IMG/VR virus record: IMGVR_UViG_2609459833_000015
Coordinates: 1 to 17,614 of that record
DNA length: 17,614 bases
Direction: 5' to 3' (one strand)
Origin: a virus
Lineage: Duplodnaviria; Heunggongvirae; Uroviricota; Caudoviricetes
The stretch's first letter is position 1, and every line of letters starts with the position of its first letter. Shown piece by piece: positions 394 to 14,611 of the stretch. Below the pieces are notes generated by a model. It was not told the DNA's origin, did not search any database, and worked only from the letters and a program-made list of their open reading frames with translations. A program made the position numbers and the translations under genes.

Positions 394-410
394 CAACTTT
401 CTCCACAAAA

Positions 411-1406
411 TCAGGACAGCACACCAATCGCCAGTGCGCGATCGATAAAACGAAATATCAGCTCCAGTTGGGAACCATACTTATCTTCAAATGCCACGGT
501 ATCCACATGCAGTTCGTCATGGTGTTTTCTGCACAACGGCAACACAAAAAGGTCATGCGCTTTTGTCCCCATACCACCCTGGCCGTGACCAATCAGATGA
601 TGCGGATCATCAGCTGGCTTTCCACAACATGCACACGGCTGCGTCTTAACCCAGCGAGTGTACTTTTCATTAACCCAGCGACGACGTTTGGGGCGTAACA
701 TAAAAGACTCCGGCGACTCCGGATCCACTTTCAGCGCCAGCACCTTTTTCGCTTTATCCCGGATAATACTGGTGGCAGTAACCGAAGGTACAAGGTCACT
801 CTCCCGGGTGACAGACGGCAAAACAGGCTTCGGTAATCTCAGGGCCTTACGGGCTGCACTTTCCGGTAAAGCATCCGCCAGGTCATTACGAACCAGCCAC
901 CAGCACAGTTCCGGCATTGTCACGACGTGACTGTCATCAAAACCAAGATCACGGCGCACAACAGACAACACCCAGCGGGCACAGTTATCCGTTGCCATTG
1001 CTTCCAGCCGTTCCGTGAACTGGTCACGGAGAAGATTGTCACAGTGCCAGCACAGACGGATTGCGCCTGGCGCGTGCCGCATTGTGGTCATGTTCTCGCT
1101 GTGCCAGTCGGAATGAGGCCACTGACAGCCCTTTTCACGAAGTAACCAGCTCTCAAGGCATTCCACGCCACCAGCACGACGGATCACCGCCTCATGGCGG
1201 AACACGGCCCGAACGGCAGGATCATCCGCCAGCGGTTGTGATGATGCCGGAACGGCACCACTGGCAAAAGATGAATAACGTTCCGGCTCAGGCTCCAGCA
1301 GGACACGCCCCTGCATAAACAGGGGCATCAGCTCTGAACCTGGCCTGAACAATACGATCCCCATACGCGGGGCGATTTCAGGGGTCAGTAGTGCTCTCAC
1401 GGTCAC
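411..1406 (-). CDS. DUF968-like prophage protein (YdfU-like) with C-terminal Cys/His-rich motif
   Basis: C-terminal CACCGKPADDPHH...LCRKHHDELH motif recalled from DUF968/YdfU proteins; start uncertain (GTG at 1406 one nt after the KilA-N stop, or ATG at 1364). Confidence 0.55.
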   Translation of the reverse strand: MTVRALLTPEIAPRMGIVLFRPGSELMPLFMQGRVLLEPEPERYSSFASGAVPASSQPLADDPAVRAVFRHEAVIRRAGGVECLESWLLREKGCQWPHSDWHSENMTTMRHAPGAIRLCWHCDNLLRDQFTERLEAMATDNCARWVLSVVRRDLGFDDSHVVTMPELCWWLVRNDLADALPESAARKALRLPKPVLPSVTRESDLVPSVTATSIIRDKAKKVLALKVDPESPESFMLRPKRRRWVNEKYTRWVKTQPCACCGKPADDPHHLIGHGQGGMGTKAHDLFVLPLCRKHHDELHVDTVAFEDKYGSQLELIFRFIDRALAIGVLS

Positions 1407-1407
1407 C

Positions 1408-2223
1408 TCAATGAACGGTATCGAGCAGCTTTAACAGCTCAGGGAATCGGGATTCGAAGAAATGCGGCTGCGTCTCGCGCGGATTTGCAGGACTGGTGAT
1501 GTTCTTGCCGAACATGCAGCCTTTCGCCGTCAGCGACCAGAATTTTTTGATGTTGTTAATCCCGGTACGGCTGTATCGTTCGCGTTGTTCAACGATCCCC
1601 AGCTTCGCCATCTGGTGATATGCCTGATTAGCCGTCAGGCGGATACCATACTGCTTCAGCAGTGCACTCAGCGACAGCGTAGGGCGGCTTGAACCATCTG
1701 GCGCATCAGCAGGTGCATCAATGGCATAGATCGGCATAAGTTCAGGAAGACCAGCTACCTTTGATAATTTCTGGTATGCACCAAGTTTCGAGGAGTTTGA
1801 CAGATTTAGAGTCTTTGCTGCTGATTCAAGCAGAATGACCCCGGATTTAATTTTGTCGGATGTGGTTTCTTCTGGTGATGAATTATGAAGCGCATCAAAA
1901 GTACGTATCACTTTTAAGCTGAATGCCGGGCTGATCCACATTGCATATGCATAGACCAGCTCTTTACAGACATACGTCCCACCATTGCGCCCCTGAATGG
2001 TGATGACAGGAATACTACGGGAATCTCCCGTAGTTTCTTCTTCCAATAATTCCACAAGAGCCTTCGTTTCAGGACGACGCATAAACTCGTGAACTTCCAG
2101 CGAACGGGAGGAGCGATTCTCACCAGCGGCAAGAAGAGCAGCTTTCTGAAGGTCGTTAAGACAGTAGTTAGATTCGAAGTACTGGCGCACAGAAACGCCA
2201 TCAATTACAAGCAACTGATTCAT
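1408..2223 (-). CDS. KilA-N domain protein
   Basis: N-terminal IDGVSVRQYF...QGRNGGTYVCKELVYAYAMWISPAFSLKVI fits the KilA-N consensus; ATG at 2223 with SD GGAG in TTTGTGGAGAAACCA; the track ORF extends to a GTG at 2235. Confidence 0.75.
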   Translation of the reverse strand: MNQLLVIDGVSVRQYFESNYCLNDLQKAALLAAGENRSSRSLEVHEFMRRPETKALVELLEEETTGDSRSIPVITIQGRNGGTYVCKELVYAYAMWISPAFSLKVIRTFDALHNSSPEETTSDKIKSGVILLESAAKTLNLSNSSKLGAYQKLSKVAGLPELMPIYAIDAPADAPDGSSRPTLSLSALLKQYGIRLTANQAYHQMAKLGIVEQRERYSRTGINNIKKFWSLTAKGCMFGKNITSPANPRETQPHFFESRFPELLKLLDTVH

Positions 2224-2385
2224 TGGTTTCTCCACAAATTTTTATCCACGAGCGGGACTGCACTCCCTTTTCGTTGATGCAGGATGAACTTACTGCGATT
2301 TTTAATAGTTATCAAGGATACACTGTTCATAAATACAGTATCTTTAACGAGGTAATACCCAAATTTAGGGTGTTGCTCAATTCCG

Positions 2386-2781
2386 TTACCGAGTTGCTAA
2401 TTTGCAACTCGCTTTTTCGTACTTACTGATAGTGATCTCGACCTTCCCTTCCGGGATAACCGGTCCCCACTCCACCAGCATTCTTTTCACCTGGCTGTCG
2501 TCTTCCCACACACCCGCGTGGGTCAGGGCGTCAAACAGCGCCTTGTTATAGTTGTCCAGATCGCGGATCCGGTTATCCGGAGGAAACAACACGATCTCCA
2601 CTGAAGCAGGTGCCGACGTTGGTTTCGGCAGACGACGTAACTGCTCAACTATTGCTGCACACGCCGCGCTCTGGAATTTTCGCCCCGCCGCGCTTATCAG
2701 GCTCTTACCAGCAAACGCCCCTTTGTTGGGGTGTCGCCAGTACGTGTTCACGCTGGGCGGAAAAGGCAGTATTAGCTTCAT
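2386..2781 (-). CDS. rusA: RusA-family Holliday junction resolvase
   Basis: LPFPPSVNTYWRH...RDLDNYNKALFDALTHAGVWEDDSQV resembles RusA (PPS.N.Y, RDLDN, DD motifs); ATGA overlap with the upstream gene stop. Confidence 0.8.
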   Translation of the reverse strand: MKLILPFPPSVNTYWRHPNKGAFAGKSLISAAGRKFQSAACAAIVEQLRRLPKPTSAPASVEIVLFPPDNRIRDLDNYNKALFDALTHAGVWEDDSQVKRMLVEWGPVIPEGKVEITISKYEKASCKLATR

Positions 2782-3104
2782 ACTTTCAGGCCCCTCTCAT
2801 GTAACCAGTGGGCTGCACGCAGCCTGGCGTTTGCCTCACCGGCAAGCAGGGCGCGGATAATCCCGACCGCCTCGCTGTCGTCGTCCTTCACCGCGGTATG
2901 AAGAGTGATACCCCGGGCCACGCCACGCTTTATCGTGATGACACCTTTTTTCTCCAGTGCGCGAAGATGCTCCACCGCTGCATTCACCGAACGGTATCCC
3001 AGCATGGTTGCCACCTCCTGATTGGTTGGCGGGAAGCCACGTTCTTTCTGATAAGAAATCAGCATATCCAGCACCTGCTGCTGGCATTGAGTTAATGTCG
3101 TCAT
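2778..3104 (-). CDS. LexA N-terminal DNA-binding-domain-only protein (no S24 peptidase domain)
   Basis: LTQCQQQVLDMLISYQKERGFPPTNQEVATMLGYRSVNAAVEHLRALEKKGVI parallels the LexA N-terminal winged helix; only 108 aa; ATGA overlap with the Dam stop. Confidence 0.65.
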   Translation of the reverse strand: MTTLTQCQQQVLDMLISYQKERGFPPTNQEVATMLGYRSVNAAVEHLRALEKKGVITIKRGVARGITLHTAVKDDDSEAVGIIRALLAGEANARLRAAHWLHERGLKV

Positions 3105-3754
3105 GCCGCCATCTCCCTGACCAGTTTTTCCGCCTGCTGGCGAACCTGCGCCAGAAATGCCTCACCACATGCCTCAAGTTCATCGCGCCCGATGTAGCTG
3201 ATTGCCGCTCCCTTCCAGGTCTTGTCGAAAACAGCAATAGCACCAGCGAAGAAAGCACCTGTTGGCACCTGCTTTTCGTCTTTCGGGATAAACCAGGCTG
3301 GCAGTTCAAAACCAATACGCCCGCGAATAAAAGCAATATGATCTGCATCTTCCGGCCACCACACTTCGCTGGTGGCCGCTTTGATCAGGAAAACATAGCG
3401 CCCGCCTTTATCACGCATGGCACTGGCATGCTTCATGATGTAACGCATGCCGGTGATGTATTGTCCCTCATGCTGACTGGCGCGGCTGTACGGGGGATTA
3501 CCAAAGGCAGCACCTTTAAGCTCCGCAAGACGTTCTGACCAGTCATGTGCCAGCGCGTTGTCTTCCGCCGTGTAATACGCGGCACATTTGGCGTTATCAC
3601 CGTCAGTAAACAGATCCAGAACAAACGGGCCAAACAGGGTGTTAATTCCCCAGAAAATGTTGTCCGGCGTGCGCCACTGATCGCCCACTTCCTTCAGTTC
3701 ATGGGCTGGTTTGTTCCGTAGTTCCACCAGCGCCTGGCAATATTTATTACTCAT
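3101..3754 (-). CDS. Phage Dam-type DNA N6-adenine methyltransferase
   Basis: NPPY catalytic motif (GNPPYS) and overall similarity to prophage Dam methylases as recalled; ATG at 3754 overlaps the upstream stop (TAATG); the track ORF extends to 3787. Confidence 0.8.
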   Translation of the reverse strand: MSNKYCQALVELRNKPAHELKEVGDQWRTPDNIFWGINTLFGPFVLDLFTDGDNAKCAAYYTAEDNALAHDWSERLAELKGAAFGNPPYSRASQHEGQYITGMRYIMKHASAMRDKGGRYVFLIKAATSEVWWPEDADHIAFIRGRIGFELPAWFIPKDEKQVPTGAFFAGAIAVFDKTWKGAAISYIGRDELEACGEAFLAQVRQQAEKLVREMAA

Positions 3755-4242
3755 TAAGCCCCCACGTAATTCCCTGACAGATACCACTCATCACCCGCTA
3801 CAGCGCGCTTTCTGCTTTTCCGTAAGCACCGCTCACGACGCGCCAGAAAATTGTTTCGTTCTGGCTGGGAGTGGCTTTCACGGAATGCCGCCATCCACAC
3901 GGTTGCAGCACGACGGTATAAGCCCCTGGACTCCAGTTCTTCCGCCTGGCGGGTCAGGCACAAAATCACCCGGGGATCGTTAGTGCCGACATAGAAATTG
4001 CGCACAGGTATGGTTTCAAGAACAGGTTGCAGTTTCTCCTCCTGCGATATCTCAGCCTGGTGTGGGAAATGTCTGCGTGTTTTCCCTTCACAACAGTGAG
4101 CCACACGGCCACTCTGACGTAACTTGCTTGCTGACTGCAGAACGCACTGTCGTGAGTAACCAGCAAAAGCATCCGCAATGTCACCTGAAGTACACCCCGG
4201 ATGGGCTTCAATGAATTTCTGTACATCGTTCATCAGACTCAT
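3754..4242 (-). CDS. PerC/Pch-like domain protein (possible transcriptional regulator); same length as CPS-53 YfdN as I recall it
   Basis: C-terminal LESRGLYRRAATVWMAAFRE...RRERC resembles the PerC-family core motif; start uncertain (ATG 4242, ATG 4233 or GTG 4248); directly coupled to the O-like gene stop. Confidence 0.45.
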   Translation of the reverse strand: MSLMNDVQKFIEAHPGCTSGDIADAFAGYSRQCVLQSASKLRQSGRVAHCCEGKTRRHFPHQAEISQEEKLQPVLETIPVRNFYVGTNDPRVILCLTRQAEELESRGLYRRAATVWMAAFRESHSQPERNNFLARRERCLRKSRKRAVAGDEWYLSGNYVGA

Positions 4243-4244
4243 GA

Positions 4245-5228
4245 TCACCCCCTGAATCCTGTCGGGATCTGGCTGTAGTCCACGTTGTCGTAACTGGCTT
4301 TGAAGTACGGGTCCTCGCGTCTGGCTGCAGATACCGCAGGAACTTCCCAGGATTCTTCGAAATGACGATCCGGACCAAAGAACGTGACAGCCTGTTTCAC
4401 AAATTGTGTGCCGCTATTGCCCATCGCAGATACCCAGCCCGCGTAGCGTTTCACACCTTCCAGCATGGTTTCGGGGTTTACCCCCTCGTTCAAACGGGCT
4501 TTCCAGGCTTTGAAGGCTGCTGATTTTGAATTGCCACCAGCACGTTTGGGATATTCCTGCCAGGCCTGTTCAAATTCCGGTGAATATTCCTGTCGGGCAG
4601 AACGCGCTGGCGCAGACGCGTCAGCGGATGCATCAATAGTGTTTTTAGTCTCCGTTGTAATCTCTGTAGTAATCTCTGTATTTGTATCAACATTCGGCGT
4701 ATCCCCTGTTCCGTTATGACGTCGGGGGGTGTTCCGTTTTAACGTAATAGCTGTATCGCTGATTGCATTATTGCTGTTACTTTCTGGCGAAACAGAAGAA
4801 GGTGTGGTGATGGCCGCAATTGCCTGTGGGTTGATCCCGACAAACAAAATATTGCTGCATTTCACCCCATCGAGCATTTCCACCGTGCGTAAATCCAGAG
4901 TAATAAACCCTGCATCGCGCAGACGCTTCAGCGCATCTGCGGTTTCCCTTTTCCCGAAACCAAACTGCTCAGCAAACGCCTGGTAGCTTCTTTGCAGTTT
5001 GTCGCCCTGAAAACGCTTGCGATATCCCAGCAACGCTCCGGTGTGCTCATCCCTGACCTCTGTCGGGCGGTACCAGTAAACGATCTCTGAAAGCAGAGCG
5101 ATAGCCGTCGCATCCGGACGCCCACTGGGTAGTCGAATATATTTCCACCAGGTCGCAGGTGTAACATTGCCGGAAATATTAATTTGACCAATAGCCATAA
5201 CTTCCGGTGTGGGGGCGTAACGGCTCAT
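4245..5228 (-). CDS. Replication initiation protein (lambda O-like replisome organiser)
   Basis: Position after cro/CII-like genes; two-domain layout with a repeat-encoding linker (TEITTEITTET, DASADASA); strong SD AGGAGG before ATG 5228; C-terminal region resembles the conserved C-terminus of phage replication proteins. Confidence 0.6.
   Translation of the reverse strand: MSRYAPTPEVMAIGQINISGNVTPATWWKYIRLPSGRPDATAIALLSEIVYWYRPTEVRDEHTGALLGYRKRFQGDKLQRSYQAFAEQFGFGKRETADALKRLRDAGFITLDLRTVEMLDGVKCSNILFVGINPQAIAAITTPSSVSPESNSNNAISDTAITLKRNTPRRHNGTGDTPNVDTNTEITTEITTETKNTIDASADASAPARSARQEYSPEFEQAWQEYPKRAGGNSKSAAFKAWKARLNEGVNPETMLEGVKRYAGWVSAMGNSGTQFVKQAVTFFGPDRHFEESWEVPAVSAARREDPYFKASYDNVDYSQIPTGFRG
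4655..4744. repeat. Iteron-like direct repeats inside the O-like gene (candidate replication origin)
   Basis: Tandem 12-mers GTTGTAATCTCT / GTAGTAATCTCT / GTATTTGTATC (4655-4689), plus TGTTCCGTTATGACG (4707-4721) and TGTTCCGTTTTAACG (4730-4744) 23 bp apart. Confidence 0.4.
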
Positions 5229-5524
5229 ACAACCTCCTTCCGCAGCATGAGAATTGTGTAGCCACGCGCAGGTTGTAGTCTGGCTTTTGCATCAATAGTA
5301 AGCGTTGCAATTTTTCGGATATGAAGATAACCAGCTCTTTCCAGTGCCAGGGTTTCCCTGAATATCGCTTGCTTAGAACAACAGCAGAAATCAGCAAGCA
5401 CCTGATGATCAATAACTCTCTCGCCTTCACCGTCTGAAGAACCCGACATCAAAACACGCAACATAATCAGGCGCTGAATCGGGTTATCGAAAGCACATCC
5501 GCACACAAACTGAAAACAGTTCAC
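5225..5524 (-). CDS. Hypothetical protein, possible helix-turn-helix
   Basis: GTG at 5524 preceded by SD GGGAGGTG; stop overlaps the O-like start (ATGA); no family recognised. Confidence 0.4.
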   Translation of the reverse strand: MNCFQFVCGCAFDNPIQRLIMLRVLMSGSSDGEGERVIDHQVLADFCCCSKQAIFRETLALERAGYLHIRKIATLTIDAKARLQPARGYTILMLRKEVV

Positions 5525-5745
5525 GCCACACCTCCCAGACGCTTAAACATTTTTCCGGAGCAAAAGGCTATAAGCGGCATACTGACGCGGTAATTACGGC
5601 CCAGCGGTTCACAAACCACCTTCTGACATTCACGGTCAACCAGGCTGACACGTAGAACATGCCCTGCAGGCGTGGTGTACCACTGACCAGGACGAGGACA
5701 ACGGAAAGTCTGATTGGTAAACCGTTTGAAAATATTCCGGATCAT
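5521..5745 (-). CDS. Hypothetical small Cys-containing protein
   Basis: ATG 5745 overlaps the Rha stop (ATGA); SD AAGGGGG five nt upstream; 74 aa. Confidence 0.4.
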   Translation of the reverse strand: MIRNIFKRFTNQTFRCPRPGQWYTTPAGHVLRVSLVDRECQKVVCEPLGRNYRVSMPLIAFCSGKMFKRLGGVA

Positions 5746-6287
5746 TTGCGCCCCCTTACCTCTGAAGGGTTCAGCGACAAATTTATGAGACTGGCCAGTA
5801 GCGCCGCGTCGTTGATGCGGTCATACAGACTTACAGCCAGCGGGGATTCGGCTTTTGCCAACATGGGATAAAGCTGCTGCAGCCAGACCTGATGAATTGA
5901 TGAAATGTAGGAATAGAGAACGCTGGCGTTATGTGCAACGTCGCTCAGTACAGAGGGATTTGAAAGCTGTTTCTCCATCTGGTTAAAGGCATTGATGTAT
6001 GCCTCTTTGAACTGGGCAGCACGTTTACCCGTGAAGCCCATGGCAAGAAACGCAAAACCGTCGCGGGTGATTTGATAGCAAGGTAGTTTGCGGCCTGTGC
6101 AATCGGTGTAATCACTCACCGAAAAATTGCGGGAAGTGAATGATGCAGAGCATTCAAGCGTGCGGATCTTTTTCAATACATCGTCATGCTGCTTGCAGAA
6201 ATATTCGGCAACGGCCAAAGAAGAAGTAACAGCCTGACCATCAACGATGGCAATTTCAGGTTGAGTGAGGGTTGGGATCGTAGCCAT
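5742..6287 (-). CDS. Rha-family phage regulatory protein
   Basis: FSVSDYTDCTGRKLPCYQITRDGFAFLAMGFTGKRAAQFKEAYINAFNQME matches the Rha family core as recalled; ATG 6287 with SD GGAGG; the track ORF 5742..6485 has a non-conserved N-terminal extension. Confidence 0.85.
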   Translation of the reverse strand: MATIPTLTQPEIAIVDGQAVTSSLAVAEYFCKQHDDVLKKIRTLECSASFTSRNFSVSDYTDCTGRKLPCYQITRDGFAFLAMGFTGKRAAQFKEAYINAFNQMEKQLSNPSVLSDVAHNASVLYSYISSIHQVWLQQLYPMLAKAESPLAVSLYDRINDAALLASLINLSLNPSEVRGRK

Positions 6288-6487
6288 GATGGCAGCCTCC
6301 GTTGACTGTGGAAAACTTCCACCACCGGAGCTGCGAAACACACAGGTGGCAGACGTACAGGGTTCGCGTACCGGCGTCAACAGACACCGGCGAGCCTTTC
6401 GGCTCCCCTGCACACCCCACCATAATTCTGGAGTGAGGAAACGCGCGCAAAAAAACCGCTGAAGCGTCATATATCGCATTGACAATT

Positions 6488-6883
6488 TCAGGACGCCAAT
6501 CCCGGCACCCGCTTTATAAGGTGCAGAGCAGTGTAACGTCCCGAAATTGCAGAATCAATATGCTGGTGGTCCTTCACACTCAACAAAATCACGCCTGAAT
6601 TTCCACAAAGGACTAAAGCACTCATGCGGGTAGTCTTTGCGAAGATAGATAACGCGCTGTGTTTCTGGCTCCCAACGAATAACATGGACATAAAGCCCTC
6701 TTCCGTCACGAAACCAGCGGTTAAGTTCCTGCACAACTCGCCCCCCACAGTCAGGTAAAGTTCTCTGTGGTTACTTACAGCCAGGTGATTTGGTAATCTG
6801 CATTCATGCCGTAACAACAGGTGTTCAGCGACGCTGACCACCAGCTGTTGCGACAAACGGTTATTTGCCGTTAAACTATTCAT
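6488..6883 (-). CDS. Hypothetical protein
   Basis: ATG 6883 overlaps the upstream stop (ATGA); SD GGAG in TGTGGAGAAACTAACGC; no family recognised. Confidence 0.35.
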   Translation of the reverse strand: MNSLTANNRLSQQLVVSVAEHLLLRHECRLPNHLAVSNHRELYLTVGGELCRNLTAGFVTEEGFMSMLFVGSQKHSALSIFAKTTRMSALVLCGNSGVILLSVKDHQHIDSAISGRYTALHLIKRVPGLAS

Positions 6884-7494
6884 GCGTTAGTTTCTCCACA
6901 ACCAGAAGCAATCGACGCCACGACGCCCGGAGCTGCACACTCGCGGGCGTTACTATTTTCTGGAGCGCAGAAGATTTTGTAGACCAGTGCTGCATGCTCC
7001 TGGAGCTTCGAAATTGAGAGGTACAGCTCGTCGTTAATTGCTGTCTTCTCATGCGGTTCCACTACACCGTCTTCGATTGCTGAACGAATCTGTCTGGAAT
7101 AACTGCCGATCTGTTCAATGACTTCCAGCAGACGCTGGTTAATATCGGCGTTGTCCACATCCTCGACGTCAGGAAGAGACACAAAGACGCCATTTGCAGA
7201 CTGCGCCACAGCGTCAGCAATGAAGTGAGTTCCACCAGCACGTTGTAAAATCATTGCCCATCCCAGCGGGAAAATCTGATCGCCATCGGCACGAAGGCGA
7301 TTGAATAAAGCGTTCTCTGTTACATCCAGCCAGTCAGCTGCTTCAGCGTAACCACCCGGCAACGCTGCGATAGTTTTTCTGACAGCTTTCACGTACCACT
7401 CAGGCTGTTTTTCTACTTTCCAGTGATGCTTACCCACGGTTAGCCTCATCGTTCTGTGGTTTCTGTTAATCGATTTATCCATTAGATTTTTCAT
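6880..7494 (-). CDS. Putative CII-like lysogeny regulator (CP76/YdaT-like)
   Basis: Immediately downstream of the cro-like gene; LDVTENALFNRLRADGDQIFPLGWAMIL region resembles phage regulatory CII (CP76) proteins as recalled; start ambiguous (ATG 7494, 7482 or 7449; the track ORF starts at GTG 7551 and overlaps cro). Confidence 0.45.
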   Translation of the reverse strand: MKNLMDKSINRNHRTMRLTVGKHHWKVEKQPEWYVKAVRKTIAALPGGYAEAADWLDVTENALFNRLRADGDQIFPLGWAMILQRAGGTHFIADAVAQSANGVFVSLPDVEDVDNADINQRLLEVIEQIGSYSRQIRSAIEDGVVEPHEKTAINDELYLSISKLQEHAALVYKIFCAPENSNARECAAPGVVASIASGCGETNA

Positions 7495-7675
7495 AAAGCT
7501 CAGGTTTAAATGGCAACCGTCCGCAAGTTCTATATGCAGCTTCTGCTGCACGTCCTTTTGGAATTAACTGGCCCGGACGGTTTCGCCACTGATAAACGGC
7601 TTCAGTTGTTATGCCGAAAAAAGCAGCAACTTTCTCAATACTGCCGAAGTAGCTTTCGATATCGTCAGTTGTCAT
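7475..7675 (-). CDS. Cro-like HTH regulator (YdaS/Cro family)
   Basis: 66 aa; HTH VAAFFGITTEAVYQWRNR; divergent from the CI repressor; SD GGAGGG before ATG 7675. Confidence 0.7.
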   Translation of the reverse strand: MTTDDIESYFGSIEKVAAFFGITTEAVYQWRNRPGQLIPKGRAAEAAYRTCGRLPFKPELYEKSNG

Positions 7676-7772
7676 ACGCCCTCCAAACTAAGTTTTATTA
7701 GATGCTAATTACAAATCTATCTTTGGTCAATAAAAACTAAGATTACTTAGCAATTCAAGAAATGGTGCTCCT
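7676..7772. promoter_or_regulatory. Immunity-region divergent promoter/operator region (PR-like leftward, PRM-like rightward)
   Basis: 97-bp AT-rich spacer between divergent cro-like and CI genes; minus-strand TTGACC (complement of 7725-7730) with a possible TAGCAT -10; AACTAAG at 7686-7692 and 7735-7741, and inverted CTAAG-N4-CTTAG at 7737-7750. Confidence 0.55.
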
Positions 7773-8399
7773 ATGGAAACGGTTGGTCAGCGTATAAAAG
7801 CTCTGAGAAGAGTTACCGGAACGTCCCAGAAAGAATTGGGTAAATTTTGTGGAGTAAGCGACGTTGCTGTGGGGTACTGGGAGAAAGACATCAATACCCC
7901 TGGTGGGGAGGCACTTTCGAAATTAGCGAAGTTCTTCAATACGTCAATAGATTACATTCTTTATGGTGCTGAGTTTGAAGGCAAACTCGTCACAAACATG
8001 CGCAGAGTTCCTGTAATATCGTGGGTTCAGGCTGGGCAGTTTACTGAGTGCAGGGCAGCAGAAGTGTTTAGTGAAGTGGACAAGTGGGTAGATACATCAT
8101 TAAAGATTGGTGATAACTCATTTGCATTAGAGGTTAAAGGTGACTCCATGACTAACCCTAATGGCCTCCCAACAATACCAGAAGGCGCAACAGTGATTGT
8201 AGATCCAGATGCAGAACCTCGTCATGGAAAAATAGTCATCGCTCGACTTGATGGAACAAACGAAGCTACAGTAAAAAAATTAGTCATCGATGGCCCTCAA
8301 AAGTTTTTAGTGCCATTAAATCCTCGGTATCCCAACATCCCTATCAATGGTAATTGCCTTATCATTGGTGTAGTCAAAGGAGTTCAATACGAACTCTAA
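7773..8399 (+). CDS. CI-like repressor (XRE-family HTH N-terminus, S24 LexA-like peptidase C-terminus)
   Basis: N-terminal HTH QKELGKFCGVSDVAVGYWE; C-terminal GDSM Ser-nucleophile motif and downstream Lys; 208 aa; divergent from cro-like gene. Confidence 0.85.
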   Translation: METVGQRIKALRRVTGTSQKELGKFCGVSDVAVGYWEKDINTPGGEALSKLAKFFNTSIDYILYGAEFEGKLVTNMRRVPVISWVQAGQFTECRAAEVFSEVDKWVDTSLKIGDNSFALEVKGDSMTNPNGLPTIPEGATVIVDPDAEPRHGKIVIARLDGTNEATVKKLVIDGPQKFLVPLNPRYPNIPINGNCLIIGVVKGVQYEL

Positions 8400-8605
8400 G
8401 ACCTCTCTTCTCTAACTAAGGCACCGAACTAAGAAAAGTTTGGTGTTTTCTCTTGCCATAATAACTAAGTTAAGTTAGATTTTATATCAAAGATAACGAA
8501 CAGGCAGGACGCCCACGAAGTAGCCGCCTGGGGCATATGAAGTCCAGGATGATTCGTTGAGTCATGTTGTGCCACCAGGCACTCATGTTAAAGCAGGTGT
8601 ATGAA

Positions 8606-8881
8606 ATGAAAGTCCAGATTTTAAACAATAACTGTGAAGTCGTTTGGTCATACGACATAGCCGCCCCTGTAGATCAGAGCGGCGATAGCTGGACCAATGG
8701 GAAACATCAGATTATGGCTGGAGTTGTGTTCTCTTTACGCCGTGCTTTGGAACAGGCTGAAGTATTTCCATCAGACCCTGAATGGAAATGGCCTTTTTCT
8801 ATTTGTCCAAATTCGGAGAGCACATTTCAGAAAATTGGTCAGAAAGTCGCACTCGAAGAGCATCAGCCAACTGTTTCCTGA
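8606..8881 (+). CDS. Hypothetical protein (first ORF downstream of CI)
   Basis: ATG 8606 with SD AGGTG six nt upstream; 91 aa, acidic, Trp-rich; 3' end overlaps the convergent ORF 8799..9044 by 83 bp and contains a plus-strand hairpin plus T-run. Confidence 0.35.
   Translation: MKVQILNNNCEVVWSYDIAAPVDQSGDSWTNGKHQIMAGVVFSLRRALEQAEVFPSDPEWKWPFSICPNSESTFQKIGQKVALEEHQPTVS
8764..8798 (+). terminator. Candidate intrinsic terminator (plus strand)
   Basis: ATTTCCAT (8764-8771), 10-nt loop, ATGGAAAT (8782-8789), then GGCC and TTTTT (8794-8798); AU-rich stem so likely weak. Confidence 0.3.
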
Positions 8882-9044
8882 TTTTTTCAGGTAACTCGTC
8901 GGCATCGCAGAAACAACAACGCTCGATCATGTTGAAAGCCGATTCGTAGAACTGTTTCTGCTGAGTGTCGCTGAGACAGGAAAAGAGCGACGTTACGATG
9001 ATTTTATTAATTGCATTATCAAGTTCTTTTTCATCAAAAGTCAT
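8799..9044 (-). CDS. Hypothetical protein (convergent to CI)
   Basis: ATG 9044 with SD AAGGA seven nt upstream; 81 aa with helical-looking hydrophilic composition; no family recognised. Confidence 0.4.
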   Translation of the reverse strand: MTFDEKELDNAINKIIVTSLFSCLSDTQQKQFYESAFNMIERCCFCDADELPEKIRKQLADALRVRLSDQFSEMCSPNLDK

Positions 9045-9284
9045 TTGATTTTCCTTTTATGTATACGGGCTTAAAAGGATACCACCGAGCCTGAAGTGGT
9101 GAAAAGACAGGCACATAACAGCTAAGTATTTTCAACCAAAGAGAATCCTTAGCGTTGTGGTGAATGCGGCTCAGCGCACGCGGGTTAAGGTTGAGGCTGA
9201 CAGTCGACCTTCTGTGGATACCCACCCGTCTGGTGTGCAACCTTCGCCAGGCACCGGGAGGCACCCGGCACCACAACTTTATGC

Positions 9285-9344
9285 TGTGTGTAGTCCTGGC
9301 GGTACCAGTTTGTACCCTTGCTTCCGGCTGGTACCGTCCTTTTT
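9285..9344 (+). ncRNA. DicF-like small RNA candidate ending in an intrinsic terminator
   Basis: 11-bp stem GGCGGTACCAG (9298-9308) paired with CTGGTACCGTC (9328-9338) followed by TTTTT (9340-9344); 5' arm GGCGGUACCAGUUUGUACCC closely resembles the DicF segment GGCGGUAUCAGUUUUACUCC as I recall it; 5' end not determinable. Confidence 0.45.
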
Positions 9345-9481
9345 ACAAAACAGAGAAGAGCATCACCGGACGACGGGCTCATAACCCAATCCATCCGGGC
9401 GGCAGTCACCGCAGGTGTTCTTCTCTGTTTTGTGGAGAAACTAACCGACCTTGCAGGGTCGATATGATGAGGAGCAGCAAA

Positions 9482-9844
9482 ATGGCTAGCGAACGCAGTA
9501 CTGATGTGCAGGCATTTATCGGGGAGCTGGACGGCGGCGTATTTGAAACCAAAATCGGCGCAGTTCTCAGTGAAGTCGCTTCCGGTGTGATGAACACGAA
9601 AACCAAAGGTAAGGTCTCACTCAACCTGGAAATCGAACCATTTGATGAGAACCGTGTGAAAATCAAACACAAACTCTCATATGTTCGCCCGACTAACCGC
9701 GGGAAAATTTCCGAAGAAGACACCACCGAAACGCCGATGTATGTCAATCGCGGTGGTCGCCTGACTATTCTGCAGGAAGACCAGGGACAATTACTGACTC
9801 TTGCCGGTGAACCTGACGGAAAACTCCGCGCAGCAGGTCATTAA
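9482..9844 (+). CDS. YfdP-like prophage protein
   Basis: 120 aa from ATG 9482 (SD GAGGAG 9469-9474), matching YfdP length and position upstream of YfdQ/R-like genes; alternative start ATG 9464. Confidence 0.5.
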   Translation: MASERSTDVQAFIGELDGGVFETKIGAVLSEVASGVMNTKTKGKVSLNLEIEPFDENRVKIKHKLSYVRPTNRGKISEEDTTETPMYVNRGGRLTILQEDQGQLLTLAGEPDGKLRAAGH

Positions 9845-9909
9845 TATCGTTCTTAATTAACTGATTATTTATCTCATCACTGAATATCTTAATATAGTGA
9901 GGACTTATT

Positions 9910-10734
9910 ATGTCTCAGAACTTAGACGCAACCGCAATTAATCAAATCCATGCCCTTATTTCTGCTCAGGGTGTTAATGAAATTATCAGTAAGATTGGTG
10001 CCGATGCTGTGGCATTGCCTGAGAATTTCCGCATTCATGATCTGGAAAAATTTAATTTAAATCGCTTCCGTTTCCGTGGTGCGCTTTCCACTGCCAGCAT
10101 CGATGACTTTACCCGTTATTCTAAAGATCTTGCAGATGAAGGCACCCGCTGCTTTATCGATGCCGATAATATGCGTGCCATCAGTGTGCTTAACCTGGGT
10201 ACTATTGATGAACCAGGTCACGCAGATAACACCGCCACTCTCAAACTGAAAAAGACAGCACCGTTCTCTGCCCTGCTGTCTGTTAATGGCGAGCGTAACT
10301 CCCAGAAGTCACTGGCAGAATGGATTGAAGACTGGGCCGACTATCTTGTGGGCTTTGATGCTAATGGTGACTCTATTAAGGCAACAAAAGCGGCTGCGGC
10401 AGTCCGTAAAATCACGATTGAAGCAAACCAGACCGCTGATTTTGAAGATAATGACTTCAGCGGCAAACGCTCTTTGATGGAGTCTGTCGAAGCGAAAACC
10501 AAAGACATTATACCAGTAGCATTTGAGTTTAAATGCGTTCCGTTTGAAGGCCTGAAAGAACGTCCGTTTAAATTACGCCTCAGCATTATCACTGGCGATC
10601 GTCCTGTACTGGTTCTGCGCATTATTCAGCTGGAAGCAGTGCAGGAGGAAATGGCTAACGAATTTCGTGATCTGCTTGTTGAGAAATTCAAAGACAGCAA
10701 AGTAGAAACCTTTATTGGTACTTTCACCGCCTGA
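9910..10734 (+). CDS. YfdQ-like prophage protein
   Basis: 274 aa, the length I recall for CPS-53 YfdQ; immediately followed by an HD-domain YfdR-like gene; SD GAGGA before ATG 9910. Confidence 0.55.
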
Positions 10735-10861
10735 TTTCATTACTGCAAATGCCCCTGCGGGGGCATTTATGGAAACGTAATTAACTCAATAATCACCGGA
10801 TGGTGAGGGCTTCCTTTTACCCAAATTCAGCGCGGTGCAGCGCATATACGTGGAGAACAAA

Positions 10862-11398
10862 ATGTCATTTATTAAAACTTTTTCCGGGAAGCATTTTTAT
10901 TATGACAAGATAAATAAAGATGACATCGTTATTAACGATATCGCGGTTTCCCTTTCAAATATCTGTCGCTTTGCCGGTCATCTTTCTCACTTCTACAGCG
11001 TCGCCCAACATGCGGTGCTTTGCAGCCAGCTGGTGCCGCAGGAATTTGCTTTTGAAGCGTTAATGCATGATGCAACAGAAGCGTATTGCCAGGACATCCC
11101 AGCTCCACTGAAACGCCTTCTTCCTGACTATAAACGGATGGAAGAAAAAATAGACGCCGTAATCCGTGAGAAATACGGGTTACCTCCTGTTATGAGCACG
11201 CCAGTGAAATATGCCGATCTCATTATGCTGGCAACCGAACGTCGCGATCTCGGGCTTGATGATGGCTCTTTCTGGCCTGTACTGGAAGGTATCCCGGCGA
11301 CAGAGATGTTCAAAGTTATTCCACTGTCACCAGGCCATGCCTACGGGATGTTTATGGAACGTTTTAACGAGTTATCGGAGTTACGCAAATGCGCATGA
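10862..11398 (+). CDS. HD-domain phosphohydrolase (YfdR-like 5'-deoxynucleotidase)
   Basis: HD signature (VAQHAV ... LMHDATE); 178 aa from ATG 10862 with SD GGAG; the track ORF begins at an upstream GTG (10835). Confidence 0.7.
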   Translation: MSFIKTFSGKHFYYDKINKDDIVINDIAVSLSNICRFAGHLSHFYSVAQHAVLCSQLVPQEFAFEALMHDATEAYCQDIPAPLKRLLPDYKRMEEKIDAVIREKYGLPPVMSTPVKYADLIMLATERRDLGLDDGSFWPVLEGIPATEMFKVIPLSPGHAYGMFMERFNELSELRKCA

Positions 11399-11751
11399 AT
11401 GTTTTCGAAATGGAAGGGTTTCTTCGCGGGAAATGTGTACCACGAGATCTGAAAGTGAATGAAACAAATGCTGAGTACCTGGTACGTAAATTCGATGCGC
11501 TTGAAGCTAAATGTGCGGCACTGGAAAACAAAATAATACCAGTGTCAGCTGAACTGCCGCCAGCAAATGAAAGTGTTCTGTTATTTGATGCTAATGGAGA
11601 AGGCTGGCTAATTGGCTGGCGTTCTCTCTGGTACACCTGGGGACAAAAAGAAACCGGAGAATGGCTGTGGACATTTCAGGTCGGGGACCTTGAAAACGTC
11701 AATATCACTCACTGGGCAGTAATGCCGAAAGCACCGAAGAATAAAAAATGA
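11389..11751 (+). CDS. DUF551-like protein (YfdS-like)
   Basis: 120 aa; C-terminal GWLIGWRSLWYTW...THWAVMP resembles the DUF551 domain; SD GGAG eight nt before ATG 11389; overlaps the YfdR-like stop. Confidence 0.55.
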   Translation: MRMNVFEMEGFLRGKCVPRDLKVNETNAEYLVRKFDALEAKCAALENKIIPVSAELPPANESVLLFDANGEGWLIGWRSLWYTWGQKETGEWLWTFQVGDLENVNITHWAVMPKAPKNKK

Positions 11752-11951
11752 GCGTGATAAAAACTCATACAGGAATTGTTATCACCCGAGACGGTCCGCA
11801 GGTAAAAAAACTGCACCAGACAAAGCGGATGTGGGTCGTCGGAAAAAACGAGTTTTACCACAAAGAAACCGGACGCCGCCACTTTGCAGAAAATACTCGC
11901 CGCCGACTGCTGATCGATACCATCAAGCCTATCGAGGTGAAGCATGTTTAA
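11748..11951 (+). CDS. Hypothetical small protein (67 aa)
   Basis: ATGA overlap with the upstream stop; basic small protein; no family recognised. Confidence 0.4.
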   Translation: MSVIKTHTGIVITRDGPQVKKLHQTKRMWVVGKNEFYHKETGRRHFAENTRRRLLIDTIKPIEVKHV

Positions 11952-12183
11952 ACAGAACGAAAAATCTATCGCTCAAATTGCTGAGTATATCCCGCGTGCG
12001 TGCCGGGATATGCAGTTGCAGGAAGCCAAAGCACGCCTGGAGAAAAAAATTGCGCTCTATATCGATGACGGCTGTGATGCCGCCGTTCTTAACGCGGCGT
12101 TCGCGCCAGCTCTTAACAGTCATACGCGAAAGTCTTTTTTTTCGTGCATCACAGCGCAGATCCGTAAAGGAGGCAACCAGTGA
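11944..12183 (+). CDS. Hypothetical small protein (79 aa)
   Basis: SD GAGGTG (11934-11939) before ATG 11944; stop overlaps the next gene's GTG start. Confidence 0.45.
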   Translation: MFKQNEKSIAQIAEYIPRACRDMQLQEAKARLEKKIALYIDDGCDAAVLNAAFAPALNSHTRKSFFSCITAQIRKGGNQ

Positions 12184-12995
12184 GCAACATTAACTATCAG
12201 GTACTGCGTGAAAAGGCAGAGAAAGCAACTAAAGGAAGCTACATCGTAGGGCATACATCTGTTAACCAACACGGCAATTTAACAGGAGTTTTTGTTTGTC
12301 AAAAATGGAAAGGAGAACCCGGTGGCGTAATTGCAGAATGTCACGTTAACTGCCTGGTTGAAACAGATGCTCAGGCTTATGCAAACGCTGAATTCATAGC
12401 AGAGGCTAACCCGGCTACCGTGCTGGCACTGCTGGATGAACGGGAAAGAAACCTGCAATACATCAAAAGCCGCGATCAGGAGAACGAGGATATTGCGCTA
12501 ACGGTAGGGAAGCTGAGAGTTGAGCTTGAGGAAGTAAAACAACACGCTGAAGAATTATCCGAAACCAAGGCTGTTCGTAACCAATGGCGGCCAGATATTT
12601 GCCCAATAACCGGACGTGCATTTTTCATGTGGATTGAGCATCCAACATTGGGAAATGTGCCGACATATGGTGGCCCATTAGATAGTTACACCATTCCAAC
12701 AAAGGACGGTGACGGTGAGTTTTCATGTGAGCGTTACGATCATGATTTTGGCGGTTGGGTAGAAAGCGAATGTCTTGGGTTATATCTGATTGATGATAGA
12801 GAACAATGCAGGGTCTACGAACTGGAGGAACGCGTTAAGGAACTGGATGCTCGGGAAATATCGCTCCCGGAACGTAGCAGCATGCTTCATCGAACAGATT
12901 TTCACGATGATTACCAAACGGTAATGGCATACAAAGTTTCTGAAGTCATCGCTGCAATCCGCGCCGCAGGCATTCGCATCAAAGGAGGTGAGTAA
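12180..12995 (+). CDS. Ead/Ea22-like protein
   Basis: GTG start with strong SD AGGAGG; central coiled-coil-like region and Trp/Cys-rich C-terminal half typical of Ea22-like prophage proteins as recalled. Confidence 0.55.
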   Translation: MSNINYQVLREKAEKATKGSYIVGHTSVNQHGNLTGVFVCQKWKGEPGGVIAECHVNCLVETDAQAYANAEFIAEANPATVLALLDERERNLQYIKSRDQENEDIALTVGKLRVELEEVKQHAEELSETKAVRNQWRPDICPITGRAFFMWIEHPTLGNVPTYGGPLDSYTIPTKDGDGEFSCERYDHDFGGWVESECLGLYLIDDREQCRVYELEERVKELDAREISLPERSSMLHRTDFHDDYQTVMAYKVSEVIAAIRAAGIRIKGGE

Positions 12996-13171
12996 TGCGT
13001 GTGGCATGTATCGGCTTGTTACCGTACCCGACTCGTTTTTGGGCTTCTGCGCTAATTGCAAAGCCACATGTCCTGATGGCTGACAACATCATCCCGGCAC
13101 CAAAGCGCCGCCATACCGGTATTGCAGCGGCACGACGAGCAGCAAAGAAACGCAGGAGAACAAAACGATGA
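12995..13171 (+). CDS. Small basic protein (58 aa; not in the ORF track because below its apparent 60-aa cutoff)
   Basis: ATG 12995 overlaps the Ea22-like stop (TAATG) with SD AGGAGGTG; stop overlaps the next ATG (ATGA); C-terminus AAARRAAKKRRRTKR. Confidence 0.4.
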   Translation: MRVACIGLLPYPTRFWASALIAKPHVLMADNIIPAPKRRHTGIAAARRAAKKRRRTKR

Positions 13172-13350
13172 AAAACCGTAAGGCAAAAATTCTGTTAGCT
13201 CGCAGAAACGGTGTTGGGGTCTGGCGATGGTTGAGGATTAGTAACAGACGAGTGAGGTTGACGGGGTGTTGCGGGGTGATGGGGCACAGTTGTTGCAAAA
13301 AGCCTAGCGCGTCACAGAACAGGCGGAAGAAAGGGTACGCAGTAAGATGA
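13168..13350 (+). CDS. Small Arg/Trp-rich protein, paralogue A (60 aa)
   Basis: Shares MKNRKAK, WLR(I/V)SNRRV(R/V)L and SA(S/A)QNR blocks with the next ORF; conserved residues use different synonymous codons (aga vs cgc, cga vs cgt). Confidence 0.5.
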   Translation: MKNRKAKILLARRNGVGVWRWLRISNRRVRLTGCCGVMGHSCCKKPSASQNRRKKGYAVR

Positions 13351-13538
13351 AAAACCGTAAAGCAAAGATGCTTATCTCCCGTGTATACAGACGTTGCTAT
13401 CCCAGCCAGTGGTTGAGAGTTAGCAATCGCCGTGTGGTGTTGTACTTATATTCTGGAATTGCCAGAGAGGGAATCAAAGATAAGCGCAGCGCGGCGCAAA
13501 ACCGCTGGAAAAACCACTTACGCACTAAAGGAGCCTGA
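13347..13538 (+). CDS. Small Arg/Trp-rich protein, paralogue B (63 aa)
   Basis: Tandem paralogue of 13168..13350 with an in-frame 3-nt indel; ATGA overlap with the upstream stop. Confidence 0.5.
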   Translation: MKNRKAKMLISRVYRRCYPSQWLRVSNRRVVLYLYSGIAREGIKDKRSAAQNRWKNHLRTKGA

Positions 13539-13539
13539 T

Positions 13540-13749
13540 ATGGCTATTTCCGCAAGTTACACCATGCATCTCTACTGTGATTGTTGCCAGTGTACAAATG
13601 GTAAATATCAAACGCCAGACTTCGGTGAGTATATCGGTACGTCATGGGCTGGCTGTGCAAAAGAGGCGCGCAAGGATGGCTGGCGAATAAGCAAAGACAA
13701 AACACGTGCTTTTGCGCCCGGGCATAAAGTTTTGAGGATTAATAAATGA
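13540..13749 (+). CDS. Small Cys-rich protein (69 aa; possible metal-binding CxCCxC)
   Basis: ATG 13540 with SD AGGAG; HLYCDCCQC motif; the track ORF 13432..13749 has an N-terminal extension overlapping the previous gene. Confidence 0.45.
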   Translation: MAISASYTMHLYCDCCQCTNGKYQTPDFGEYIGTSWAGCAKEARKDGWRISKDKTRAFAPGHKVLRINK

Positions 13750-14195
13750 CCACTATTACCAGAGAAAACGCGGAAATTAAATCATTCATCACTGGTTTCC
13801 TGAGCGACCCGGCGCACGATAACCAATCTTCAAGCAGCCTGCTTGCCAATGTGTTTCGTATCGCACTGGCATCGTTGGAAGCAGAGCCAGTCGCGTGGCG
13901 ATATCGCTACGTGAAAAAAGGTGTTACGGACTCTCAGGGGGATTCGTGGGTTGGTGACTGGAAATATGTACCGACAAAAGAGGATTGCAACGACAGACCG
14001 AACTATGAAATTCAGGCGTTATTCACTGCCCCGCCTGTGCCACTGACATCAGAAGGATTGATTAAAGCAGTGCGTTTCTATGAACAGGTTAAGCGTGAAA
14101 ATCCGCCAGTCGAAACCGGAGCATGGAAAGACGCTGTTGACTGGGTACTCAAAGAGGCTTGCCAGGCTGTAAACATTGGCATCAAAGGAGAGTGA
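13746..14195 (+). CDS. Hypothetical protein (149 aa)
   Basis: ATGA overlap with the upstream stop; SD GAGGA; shares an N-terminal module (RIALASLEAEPV) with the 14612..15556 gene. Confidence 0.5.
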   Translation: MTTITRENAEIKSFITGFLSDPAHDNQSSSSLLANVFRIALASLEAEPVAWRYRYVKKGVTDSQGDSWVGDWKYVPTKEDCNDRPNYEIQALFTAPPVPLTSEGLIKAVRFYEQVKRENPPVETGAWKDAVDWVLKEACQAVNIGIKGE

Positions 14196-14196
14196 T

Positions 14197-14418
14197 ATGG
14201 CTAACTCATTACTTGAAACCTGCAACAACTAGCAGATTCAGAGGGCGGAGATTTTATCTCGCAATCCAGATATGGCAATGACAATTGATAACCTGGATAC
14301 GCTAATTGAACGGACCGTGCGTTCTGCAATTGATATAGCACATCGAGTAGATTGGGATTTCAGAGAAGCGGAGCGACTCGCTAAAGAGCAGGCGAAAGCA
14401 GCGGGTAAAGGAGAGTGA
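14197..14418 (+). pseudogene. Small gene interrupted by an in-frame amber codon (TAG 14230-14232)
   Basis: ATG 14197 sits behind the same AAAGGAGAGTGATATG cassette used by the neighbouring gene; the frame runs 11 codons, TAG, then 61 more codons ending GKGE-stop at 14416-14418 directly coupled to the next gene. Confidence 0.35.
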
Positions 14419-14419
14419 T

Positions 14420-14608
14420 ATGTCACTGACGGTGAGGCAATTAATCAGCAAGCTCAGAAAAATGCCTCCTGAGGCTGTCGTGGTCTGGCAGGGCTATGAA
14501 CAATCAGAGTGTGAGTATAACGACTTTGTAGGTCATGTTGCTGATATTACAGATGAAAATTCATCATCCTTTGACCCAGAAGTGCGCGTTGTGGCGCTAA
14601 GAGGATAA
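14420..14608 (+). CDS. Hypothetical small protein (62 aa)
   Basis: SD AAAGGAGAG before ATG 14420. Confidence 0.45.
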   Translation: MSLTVRQLISKLRKMPPEAVVVWQGYEQSECEYNDFVGHVADITDENSSSFDPEVRVVALRG

Positions 14609-14611
14609 CCC

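Follow-up and report, generated by a model that had tools for sequence, protein, structure and literature searches.

The yfdP-yfdQ-yfdR-yfdS cassette in the early-left operon of a Chi-rich lambdoid prophage: a conserved gene pair, its hairpin and a possible link to host replication initiation

The stretch of DNA analysed here, referred to throughout as the window, comprises positions 1 to 17,614 of the IMG/VR virus record IMGVR_UViG_2609459833_000015 (Caudoviricetes), and carries on its + strand four consecutive open reading frames (ORFs) between 9482 and 11751 that encode proteins of 120, 274, 178 and 120 aa. A sequence-only reading of this DNA had recognised in their lengths and order the yfdP, yfdQ, yfdR and yfdS genes of the Escherichia coli K-12 element CPS-53 (KplE1), and comparison with the CPS-53 proteins of strain JW5503 by BLASTP bears this out: the window and K-12 proteins are identical at 119 of 120 positions for YfdP (99%), 268 of 274 for YfdQ (98%), 175 of 178 for YfdR (98%) and 115 of 117 for YfdS (98%). 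At the DNA level, K-12 CPS-53 is 97.6% identical to window positions 9463-11736, and RefSeq applies the same four names in a near-identical prophage of E. coli EC2. On these grounds the four genes are almost certainly a yfdP-yfdQ-yfdR-yfdS cassette of the K-12 CPS-53 type. Such a cassette is already known, its genes being named in RefSeq, and it is common in E. coli, with matches in 3035 of 5426 complete genomes; in 2445 of these the match covers at least 80% of the cassette.

The analysis shows the cassette to have two parts, yfdP-yfdQ and yfdR-yfdS. A Shine-Dalgarno-like sequence stands ahead of each of the four ORFs; because the ATGs at 9482 and 10862 are preceded in this way, and in view of the K-12 annotation, longer mechanical ORFs at 9164-9844 and 10835-11398 were ruled out. 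The start of yfdS overlaps the stop of yfdR by 10 nt, and yfdS in turn overlaps the next ORF by 4 nt; given their overlap, yfdR and yfdS are probably translationally coupled. The coordinates of these genes and of the other features are collected in Table 1.

Table 1. Features of the cassette and its surroundings in the window
Feature	Position	Strand	Description
cI-like repressor gene	7773..8399	+	208-aa ORF with predicted helix-turn-helix (HTH) and S24 peptidase parts; RefSeq 'LexA family protein'
PL-like promoter with OL-like operators	8410..8485	+	sigma70-like site and AACTAAG copies
yfdP	9482..9844	+	120 aa; Pfam PF27127 'YfdP', PHROG 204
yfdQ	9910..10734	+	274 aa; DUF2303/PF10065, PHROG 210
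Hairpin	10747..10768	+	GC-rich, 9 bp, loop TGCG, 12 nt past the yfdQ stop; sequence read directly
Second small hairpin, TCACC-GGAT-GGTGA	10793..10806	+	yfdQ-yfdR spacer; RNAalifold, 8 enteric spacers
yfdR	10862..11398	+	178 aa; predicted HD-domain phosphohydrolase, annotated 5'-deoxynucleotidase
yfdS	11389..11751	+	120 aa; coiled-coil N-terminus and DUF551-like C-terminus
xis and int	16040..17614	+	distal early-left operon; RefSeq excisionase and tyrosine integrase adjoining mlrA
Seven Chi sites GCTGGTGG	897, 1168, 2472, 3724, 4534, 6838, 7232 (span 897..7239)	-	early-right operon, lambda-active orientation
Eighth active-orientation Chi site	15913..15920	-	near xis/int

The surroundings of the cassette are those of a lambdoid early region. 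End to end, the window is 99.66% identical (53 mismatches, 7 gaps) to the EC2 prophage, which is roughly 53 kb long and integrated beside mlrA (yehV), and of which the window spans the part from the Q antiterminator gene to the integrase gene. The + strand carries a cI-like repressor gene, the cassette, an Ea22-like gene, many small ORFs, xis and int, so that this strand runs in lambda's leftward direction; on the - strand lie cro, genes for CII-like, Rha-domain, O-like, PerC, Dam, LexA DNA-binding-domain, RusA, KilA-N and DUF968 proteins, and Q. The repressor matches NCBIfam models of the LexA/UmuD-like and DicA/RstR-like HTH types. A sigma70-like site, TTGCCA-17-TAGATT, lies at 8453-8481 and is overlapped by copies of AACTAAG past the cI stop; of the five exact copies of this motif in the window, three (8414, 8427 and 8463) lie there and two (7686 and 7735) in the cro-cI spacer. 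Judged by sequence, this distribution is the pattern expected of the rightward operators (OR) and of the leftward operators and promoter (OL/PL) of such a phage. The cassette follows about 1 kb downstream of the PL-like promoter and, standing between the repressor gene and xis/int on the same strand, sits in the PL operon, as the sequence-only reading had it. Its description of the prophage as apparently intact fares less well, since in the nearest complete relative, that of EC2, the major capsid gene is frameshifted, there are further pseudogenes, and an IS1 lies downstream of Q.

The leader between the PL-like promoter and yfdP (8606-9467) holds a 91-aa + strand ORF (PHROG 3195), an 81-aa ORF on the opposite strand (8799-9044) that has a good AGGA ribosome-binding site and overlaps the end of the 91-aa ORF, and a frameshifted ORF at 9157-9467, likewise a pseudogene in EC2. 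No antiterminator of the N type was recognised in 8606-9467.

The position of the cassette bears directly on the idea that its genes are moron-like and benefit the lysogen, for example by improving tolerance of oxidative or alkylation stress, under expression signals of their own. In K-12, loss of CPS-53, yfdQ or yfdS reportedly raises sensitivity to H2O2 or methyl methanesulfonate (MMS), the host regulator SrsR is described in the literature as binding upstream of K-12 yfdP and affecting yfdPQ mRNA, and about half of complete E. coli genomes have retained the cassette. However, the early-left operators ahead of the genes are under repressor control both here and in functional phages, so that a stable lysogen should not express them. 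The region that holds the SrsR boxes upstream of the K-12 genes is, moreover, a deletion junction that is absent here, with K-12 homology starting at 9463. SrsR boxes (TCAGATTTTGC) form no cluster in the window, where eight scattered matches with at most two mismatches compare with 7.25 expected, and the K-12 regulatory junction is thus not conserved here. The yfdP-yfdQ pair occurs, too, in Vibrio and Xanthomonas podophages that appear to be lytic, and a primary role in the lysogen seems to us very unlikely.

The cassette occupies the place in which lambda carries its exo/bet/gam recombination genes. Pfam and PHROG scans of the ORFs from cI to int detected no exonuclease, annealing protein, Gam/Abc-type inhibitor or single-stranded DNA-binding protein (SSB), and yielded families of unknown function plus Ea22, DUF551 and DUF4222 only. 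Likewise, tblastn with seven recombination (Rec) proteins (the SSB, exonuclease, RecT-like and Gam-like proteins of ArgO145 and the recombinase, exonuclease and SSB of Usme) found nothing below E 0.1 in the whole EC2 prophage, and no lambda Red-type exo/bet/gam module was identified in the prophage. A RusA resolvase is encoded in the early-right operon, as in many such phages.

The distribution of Chi sites fits this absence of Rec genes into a published pattern. With the coding strand of the late genes, which is the - strand of the window, taken as the active orientation, a direct count gives ten Chi octamers in the window, eight active and two inactive (3368 and 6562, + strand), where 0.55 +/- 0.76 are expected and none of 200 shuffles reaches ten; none lies inside yfdPQRS. 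The 53-kb EC2 prophage has 12 active and three inactive sites, 11 of the 12 active ones falling in the 16 kb upstream of the terminase small-subunit gene, the presumed location of cos, and phage SfV has 17 active and five inactive sites. The early-left region of ArgO145, which includes a Rec module, has none in active and two in inactive orientation. Lambdoid phages of the 'no Rec module, high Chi' class have been defined by at least eight active and at most six inactive Chi sites (PMC12315714), and the counts of the window, EC2 and SfV all fall within these bounds. It is therefore very likely that the prophage belongs to this class. Following the model published for it, the function of Red would most plausibly be covered by host RecBCD and RecA acting at the oriented Chi sites.

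To understand what the cassette itself might contribute, it is useful to separate its constant from its variable parts. YfdP matches PHROG 204 (E 1e-49), and a match to PF27127 'YfdP' is precomputed for every YfdP homologue retrieved. YfdQ matches DUF2303 (PF10065) over residues 7-272 with 304.9 bits against a gathering score of 26.6 (E 5.8e-91). Sequence diversity was taken from a phage collection and from contigs encoding homologues. In all 11 diverse phage loci compared (the window, LLS, ST64B, phiNP, ArgO145, Vibrio VvAW1, D478, D93 and 1.232.O, Pseudomonas pAN and Xylella Usme), a YfdP homologue is encoded directly upstream of YfdQ, with hidden Markov model E-values from 1e-15 to 1e-69, and the pairing holds in eight further enteric prophages. 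The genes that follow are less constant. Of 80 IMG/VR contigs whose YfdQ is near-identical, all 80 encode YfdP, 79 YfdR, 57 YfdS and 38 YfdT; these related loci are 98-100% identical and hence uninformative for covariation. YfdR follows yfdP-yfdQ in most of the enteric prophages examined, and in a P. stutzeri phage a homologue of 38% identity lies three genes past the pair; in the Vibrio and Xanthomonas phages no YfdR follows it. As far as these gene neighbourhoods tell, the conserved evolutionary unit is yfdP-yfdQ and not yfdQRST, and 'yfdPQ' is also how the K-12 literature gives the operon unit.

These neighbourhoods also bear on whether YfdP and YfdQ, possibly with YfdR and YfdS, constitute a hidden recombination, annealing or end-protection system that replaces Red. 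Quite apart from the position of the cassette, distant yfdP-yfdQ pairs lie within or next to genes for recombination: Vibrio D478 has Erf, RecE-like, exonuclease, YfdP, YfdQ, one ORF and SSB in succession; ArgO145 has Gam, RecT, Exo, SSB, YfdP, YfdQ; in Xylella phage Usme, genes for a recombinase, an exonuclease and an SSB follow the pair at a distance of 2-4 kb; in VvAW1 the pair stands between an upstream exonuclease gene and a downstream SSB gene; and LLS and phiNP encode exonucleases within the same operon. A yfdQ deletion is also reported to be MMS- and H2O2-sensitive (cited in PMC4776307). Conversely, ArgO145, D478 and Usme confirm that the pair co-occurs with complete, separate Rec modules, and the abundant, correctly oriented Chi sites point to reliance on RecBCD. 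Zheng, Casjens, Davidson, Amundsen and Smith, who in 2025 named the LLS homologues of yfdR, yfdQ and yfdP explicitly, reported such homologues to be common in early-left operons, neither limited to phages without Rec modules nor universal in them, and considered them unlikely to be hidden recombination proteins (PMC12315714); since they also stand beside complete Rec modules, they do not appear to be a Red replacement. A concealed recombination system is thus, in our estimate, quite unlikely. The sequence-only view that the module stands in place of exo/bet/gam is right as to the missing genes and the position, and wrong in so far as it implies a functional substitution.

One structural observation keeps a related idea in view. 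The Protein Data Bank (PDB) entry 9o7m, 'YfdQ Protein', contains 36 identical chains in a single entry, which would fit a large homo-oligomer of the kind that ring- or filament-forming annealing proteins make, and to that extent favours the recombination explanation just discussed. Its sequence leads to Cp2-like Xanthomonas and Xylella phages (98.8% identity to MET23-P3) and is that of a homologue about 38% identical to the YfdQ of the window; the corresponding Xylella phage Usme locus is L007, 5962-6786. We found no publication on 9o7m; the entry goes unmentioned in a cryo-electron microscopy preprint on the Cp2-like phage PhiXacm4-11 and is not in a Foldseek PDB fold library ending April 2026, and the Usme proteins that neighbour YfdQ have no PDB entries. 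No informative structural relatives of YfdQ or YfdP were found, and the AlphaFold2 model of YfdP (predicted local distance difference test score, pLDDT, 67) gave no informative fold match. Because YfdQ has an orphan fold, is apparently a large homo-oligomer, is in distant phages nearly always encoded, with YfdP, next to SSB, exonuclease and annealing genes and is followed by a conserved hairpin of its own, yfdP-yfdQ might specify an unrecognised DNA-transaction complex, for example one that coats or protects DNA ends or replication intermediates, or that modulates RecBCD or RecA; we regard this as unlikely.

The hairpin in question closes the yfdP-yfdQ part of the cassette. The perfect 9-bp hairpin that the sequence-only reading had placed between the second and third genes is present as described, with arms AAATGCCCC (10747-10755) and GGGGCATTT (10760-10768) forming nine perfect pairs, five of them G-C, around the loop TGCG. 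An equivalent GC-rich stem of at least 7 bp, 4-30 nt past the yfdQ stop, occurs in 18 of 19 diverse lineages, whose stem sequences differ widely while the position of the hairpin stays. Under a strict Watson-Crick criterion the hairpin is found in 11 of the 19 lineages compared with 2.2% of background 70-nt windows, an enrichment with a nominal P of 3e-14, the lineages not being independent. RNAalifold analysis of eight enteric spacers further revealed compensatory changes at three stem pairs. A second, smaller hairpin in the same spacer, of five pairs, is maintained through changes from CACC/GGTG to CGCC/GGCG. A scan of 9482-11751 at the Rfam gathering level returned no known RNA family.

Judged by these comparisons, the hairpin keeps its position, with covarying stems, across phages of Enterobacterales, Vibrio, Pseudomonas and Xanthomonas, and this kept position together with the covariation shows it to be a functional element. 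Its Vibrio homologues resemble canonical terminators, the stem of VvAW1 running into a canonical UUUUGUU tail and the stems of D93 and 1.232.O into U-rich ones. We consider it rather likely that the hairpin closing yfdPQ is a terminator or attenuator; more broadly, it is probably a weak terminator, an attenuator or a 3'-end stabiliser that sets the expression of yfdPQ apart from that of yfdRS.

The second part of the cassette encodes YfdR and YfdS. YfdR matches PHROG 318 (E 4e-110), and its Pfam scores fall just below the gathering thresholds, with 24.3 bits against 25.9 for YfbR-like and 17 against 22.5 for HD_3. Alignment with the HD protein Atu1052 (PDB 2gz4; E 2e-13) conserves the H of VAQH, the HD at residues 69-70, the D of QD and the D of YAD. 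On the strength of this pairwise alignment and the PHROG match, YfdR is a predicted HD-domain phosphohydrolase, and the HD domain that had been read in the third gene is upheld. With 19.9 bits against a cutoff of 122, YfdR does not score as a YfbR equivalog (NCBIfam NF003009). It shares with E. coli YfbR the H...HD...D pattern of the HD superfamily and the 5'-deoxynucleotidase annotation, a name that goes back to biochemistry on the K-12 protein, but is closer to Atu1052, and its nucleotide affinity has been reported as much lower (PMC4776307); by these comparisons it is an HD lineage separate from YfbR. For YfdS, the DUF551 assignment made from sequence alone is a near miss: orthology to K-12 YfdS (98%) is secure, whereas the DUF551 (PF04448) match over residues 50-117 scores 21.0 bits against a gathering score of 22 (E 6e-4). 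The protein also matches PHROG 583 (E 2e-81).

If YfdR were chiefly an enzyme, it might dephosphorylate deoxynucleoside monophosphates (dNMPs) or hydrolyse a nucleotide signal, acting on nucleotide pools or against host defence, with its binding to DnaA incidental and YfdP, YfdQ and YfdS as unrelated accessories. In favour of this, the protein retains its metal-binding H, HD and D residues and carries the annotation 5'-deoxynucleotidase or dNMP phosphatase in RefSeq and PHROG, and its linkage to yfdPQ as far as the P. stutzeri phage fits a conserved enzyme. The distance from YfbR noted above argues against this, as does the lack of any pointer to a target system within the window. Nor is there defence or anti-defence evidence: PADLOC, with which membership of the cassette in a defence system was tried, returned zero matches. 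We judge a purely catalytic role unlikely.

The alternative is that the cassette acts on the initiation of host replication. Noguchi and Katayama (2016) identified CPS-53 DNA as a multicopy suppressor of the over-initiation of hda-185 cells and traced the activity to yfdQ and yfdR together with yfdS or yfdT, yfdP being dispensable; extra copies of the cluster also inhibited initiation at oriC in wild-type cells, and purified YfdR bound DnaA in a manner dependent on Phe46 (PMC4776307). They had already proposed that in the ancestral phage these genes played a takeover role like that of lambda P (PMC4776307). The sequence-only reading had described this work correctly as to YfdR-DnaA binding and the inhibition of initiation, and incorrectly as to the gene set, which is not yfdPQRS but yfdQ-yfdR with yfdS or yfdT, in multicopy. 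The window lacks yfdT but carries the sufficient set Q, R and S intact, and so has the gene content of a replication-inhibiting cluster.

It is plausible that on induction the cassette would be expressed early, from the PL-like operon. To judge from the experiments with the 98%-identical K-12 protein, YfdR would then bind domain I of DnaA at Phe46 in competition with DiaA and DnaB, and together with YfdQ and YfdS would damp initiation at the host oriC, biasing replication resources towards the phage. Because the O-like protein has no recognised helicase loader beside it, competition for host DnaB is an attractive if speculative addition to this model. At the hairpin, read-through attenuation or 3'-end stabilisation would, rather more probably than otherwise, yield more YfdP and YfdQ than YfdR and YfdS.

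Several considerations weigh against this model. The effect has been seen only under multicopy conditions and a yfdQRST deletion has no initiation phenotype, while YfdR alone is only a moderate inhibitor, and the authors concede that an overexpression artefact is possible (PMC4776307). YfdR has also been credited with nucleotidase activity, of low substrate affinity (Zimmerman 2008, as cited in PMC4776307). As yfdP-yfdQ occurs without yfdR in Vibrio and Xanthomonas phages, inhibition of DnaA by YfdR is not the ancestral function of the unit. Lastly, the hairpin at 10747-10768 is followed by AUUUAUGG and has no canonical U-tract, and the terminator scan made no call, the run of T being too short for its rule of at least five T in eight. 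That inhibition of host initiation is the natural role of the cassette is therefore a tentative proposition, to which we would give somewhat less than an even chance. Taken as a whole, the explanation we prefer, with a probability of roughly 0.55, is that of an early-left cassette in a lambdoid prophage without a Rec module, which would damp host initiation, would be tuned in its expression by the hairpin, and would leave recombination to RecBCD.

Comparison with the closest known systems places this explanation in context. K-12 CPS-53 has the same gene order and lengths, 98-99% protein identity and, like the window, the sufficient set of Q, R and S; the two differ in that the K-12 cassette is fused to a truncated yfdO in an argW remnant, whereas the window retains the repressor, operators and PL-like promoter of an mlrA prophage. 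K-12 also has yfdT where the window has a different 67-aa ORF after yfdS, and from window to K-12 the YfdR proteins differ by K151N, S155A and E170D.

The cassette is found as in the window in SfV (orf32-orf28), cdtI, SfIV, Ayreon and Stx2c phages, with YfdQ 98% identical. In SfV, the order is cI, orf33, yfdP, Q, R, S, T, xis, int, so that the cassette makes up almost the entire early-left operon; cdtI, LLS, ST64B and phiNP share with the window the order of repressor, cassette and xis/int. Like the window, SfV is without a Rec module and has abundant, oriented Chi sites. The SfV/cdtI group differs in consisting of complete inducible phages with other integrases and virion modules (the SfV tail is Mu-like), and the window has a longer region past yfdS, with Ea22-like and many small ORFs. 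LLS provides the functional type: a lambdoid phage with no SSB, nuclease, annealing protein or RecBCD inhibitor in its early-left operon (PMC12315714), as in the window prophage, whose Chi sites likewise cluster toward the presumed cos-proximal right end. Homologues of yfdP, yfdQ and yfdR occupy the equivalent place in LLS but are only 56-67% identical (YfdQ 56%, YfdR 67%), and LLS forms plaques as a free phage and benefits from RecBCD in its growth, whereas the nearest complete relative of the window looks defective.

At the level of mechanism, lambda P follows the logic proposed for YfdR, an early phage protein that binds the host initiator and lowers initiation at oriC, with no sequence relationship between the two. 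Lambda P binds domain III of DnaA and is itself a helicase loader, whereas YfdR is a predicted HD-domain hydrolase that competes moderately in vitro. The Bacillus subtilis protein SirA uses Phe49, the equivalent of DnaA Phe46, and YfdR uses the DiaA/DnaB-binding patch around Phe46.

Several further features of the window and of the EC2 prophage deserve mention. The presumed replication initiator, an O-like protein of 327 aa, is encoded at 4245-5228 (-), and its C-terminal part is homologous to the truncated K-12 yfdO; the K-12 yfdO region is 93.6% identical at the DNA level to window positions 3488-4320. For the O-like protein neither Pfam nor NCBIfam gives a match, and the window has no gene recognisable as encoding a helicase or a helicase loader. 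Also on the - strand, matches at the Rfam gathering level to the C4 antisense RNA (6342-6427, 65 bits) and isrK (6449-6524, 54 bits) directly precede the Rha domain encoded by the ORF at 5745-6485. In EC2 both RNAs fall within a single 382-aa 'Rha family' coding sequence, which the window splits, by an in-frame stop at 6488-6490, into ORFs of 131 and 247 aa. As read from these matches, the region resembles a c4/isrK-controlled antirepressor switch of the P1/Gifsy type in the early-right operon.

Past the cassette, three + strand ORFs (12180-12995, 13746-14195 and 14612-15556) share N-terminal Ea22/Ead-like segments (PHROGs 60, 250, 660, 3323 and 5117) and differ in their C-termini, and one Ea22-like ORF ends in the first 16 positions of DUF551; the Ea22-like ORFs past yfdS look like a set of modular paralogues. 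Overlapping + strand ORFs of 60 and 63 aa at 13168-13350 and 13347-13538, both in PHROG 1380 and both starting MKNRKAK, look like a tandem duplication of a gene for an arginine/lysine-rich peptide in the early-left operon. Outside the window, where the regions noted are L003 20031-20728 and 41272-42435 and L004, the EC2 prophage has an ompC-like porin gene embedded among its tail genes, and it is flanked by a 20-bp direct repeat, CACGCGCGTAACGTGACAGG. Its IS1 downstream of Q occupies the place in which Stx phages integrated at yehV carry stx.

The link to DnaA was published in 2016 and the early-left location of these genes in Chi-rich phages without Rec modules in 2025, and our finding changes little in either. 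What it adds is a setting that the work of Noguchi and Katayama lacked for judging whether YfdQRS(T) turns off host initiation as a phage develops, since the cassette here, as in SfV and cdtI, still stands behind its natural repressor-controlled promoter. Were yfdP-yfdQ to prove a DNA-transaction complex, which we have rated unlikely, this would help to explain the reliance of 'no Rec module' lambdoid phages on host recombination, and the effect of YfdR on DnaA would then be a secondary add-on of enteric phages.

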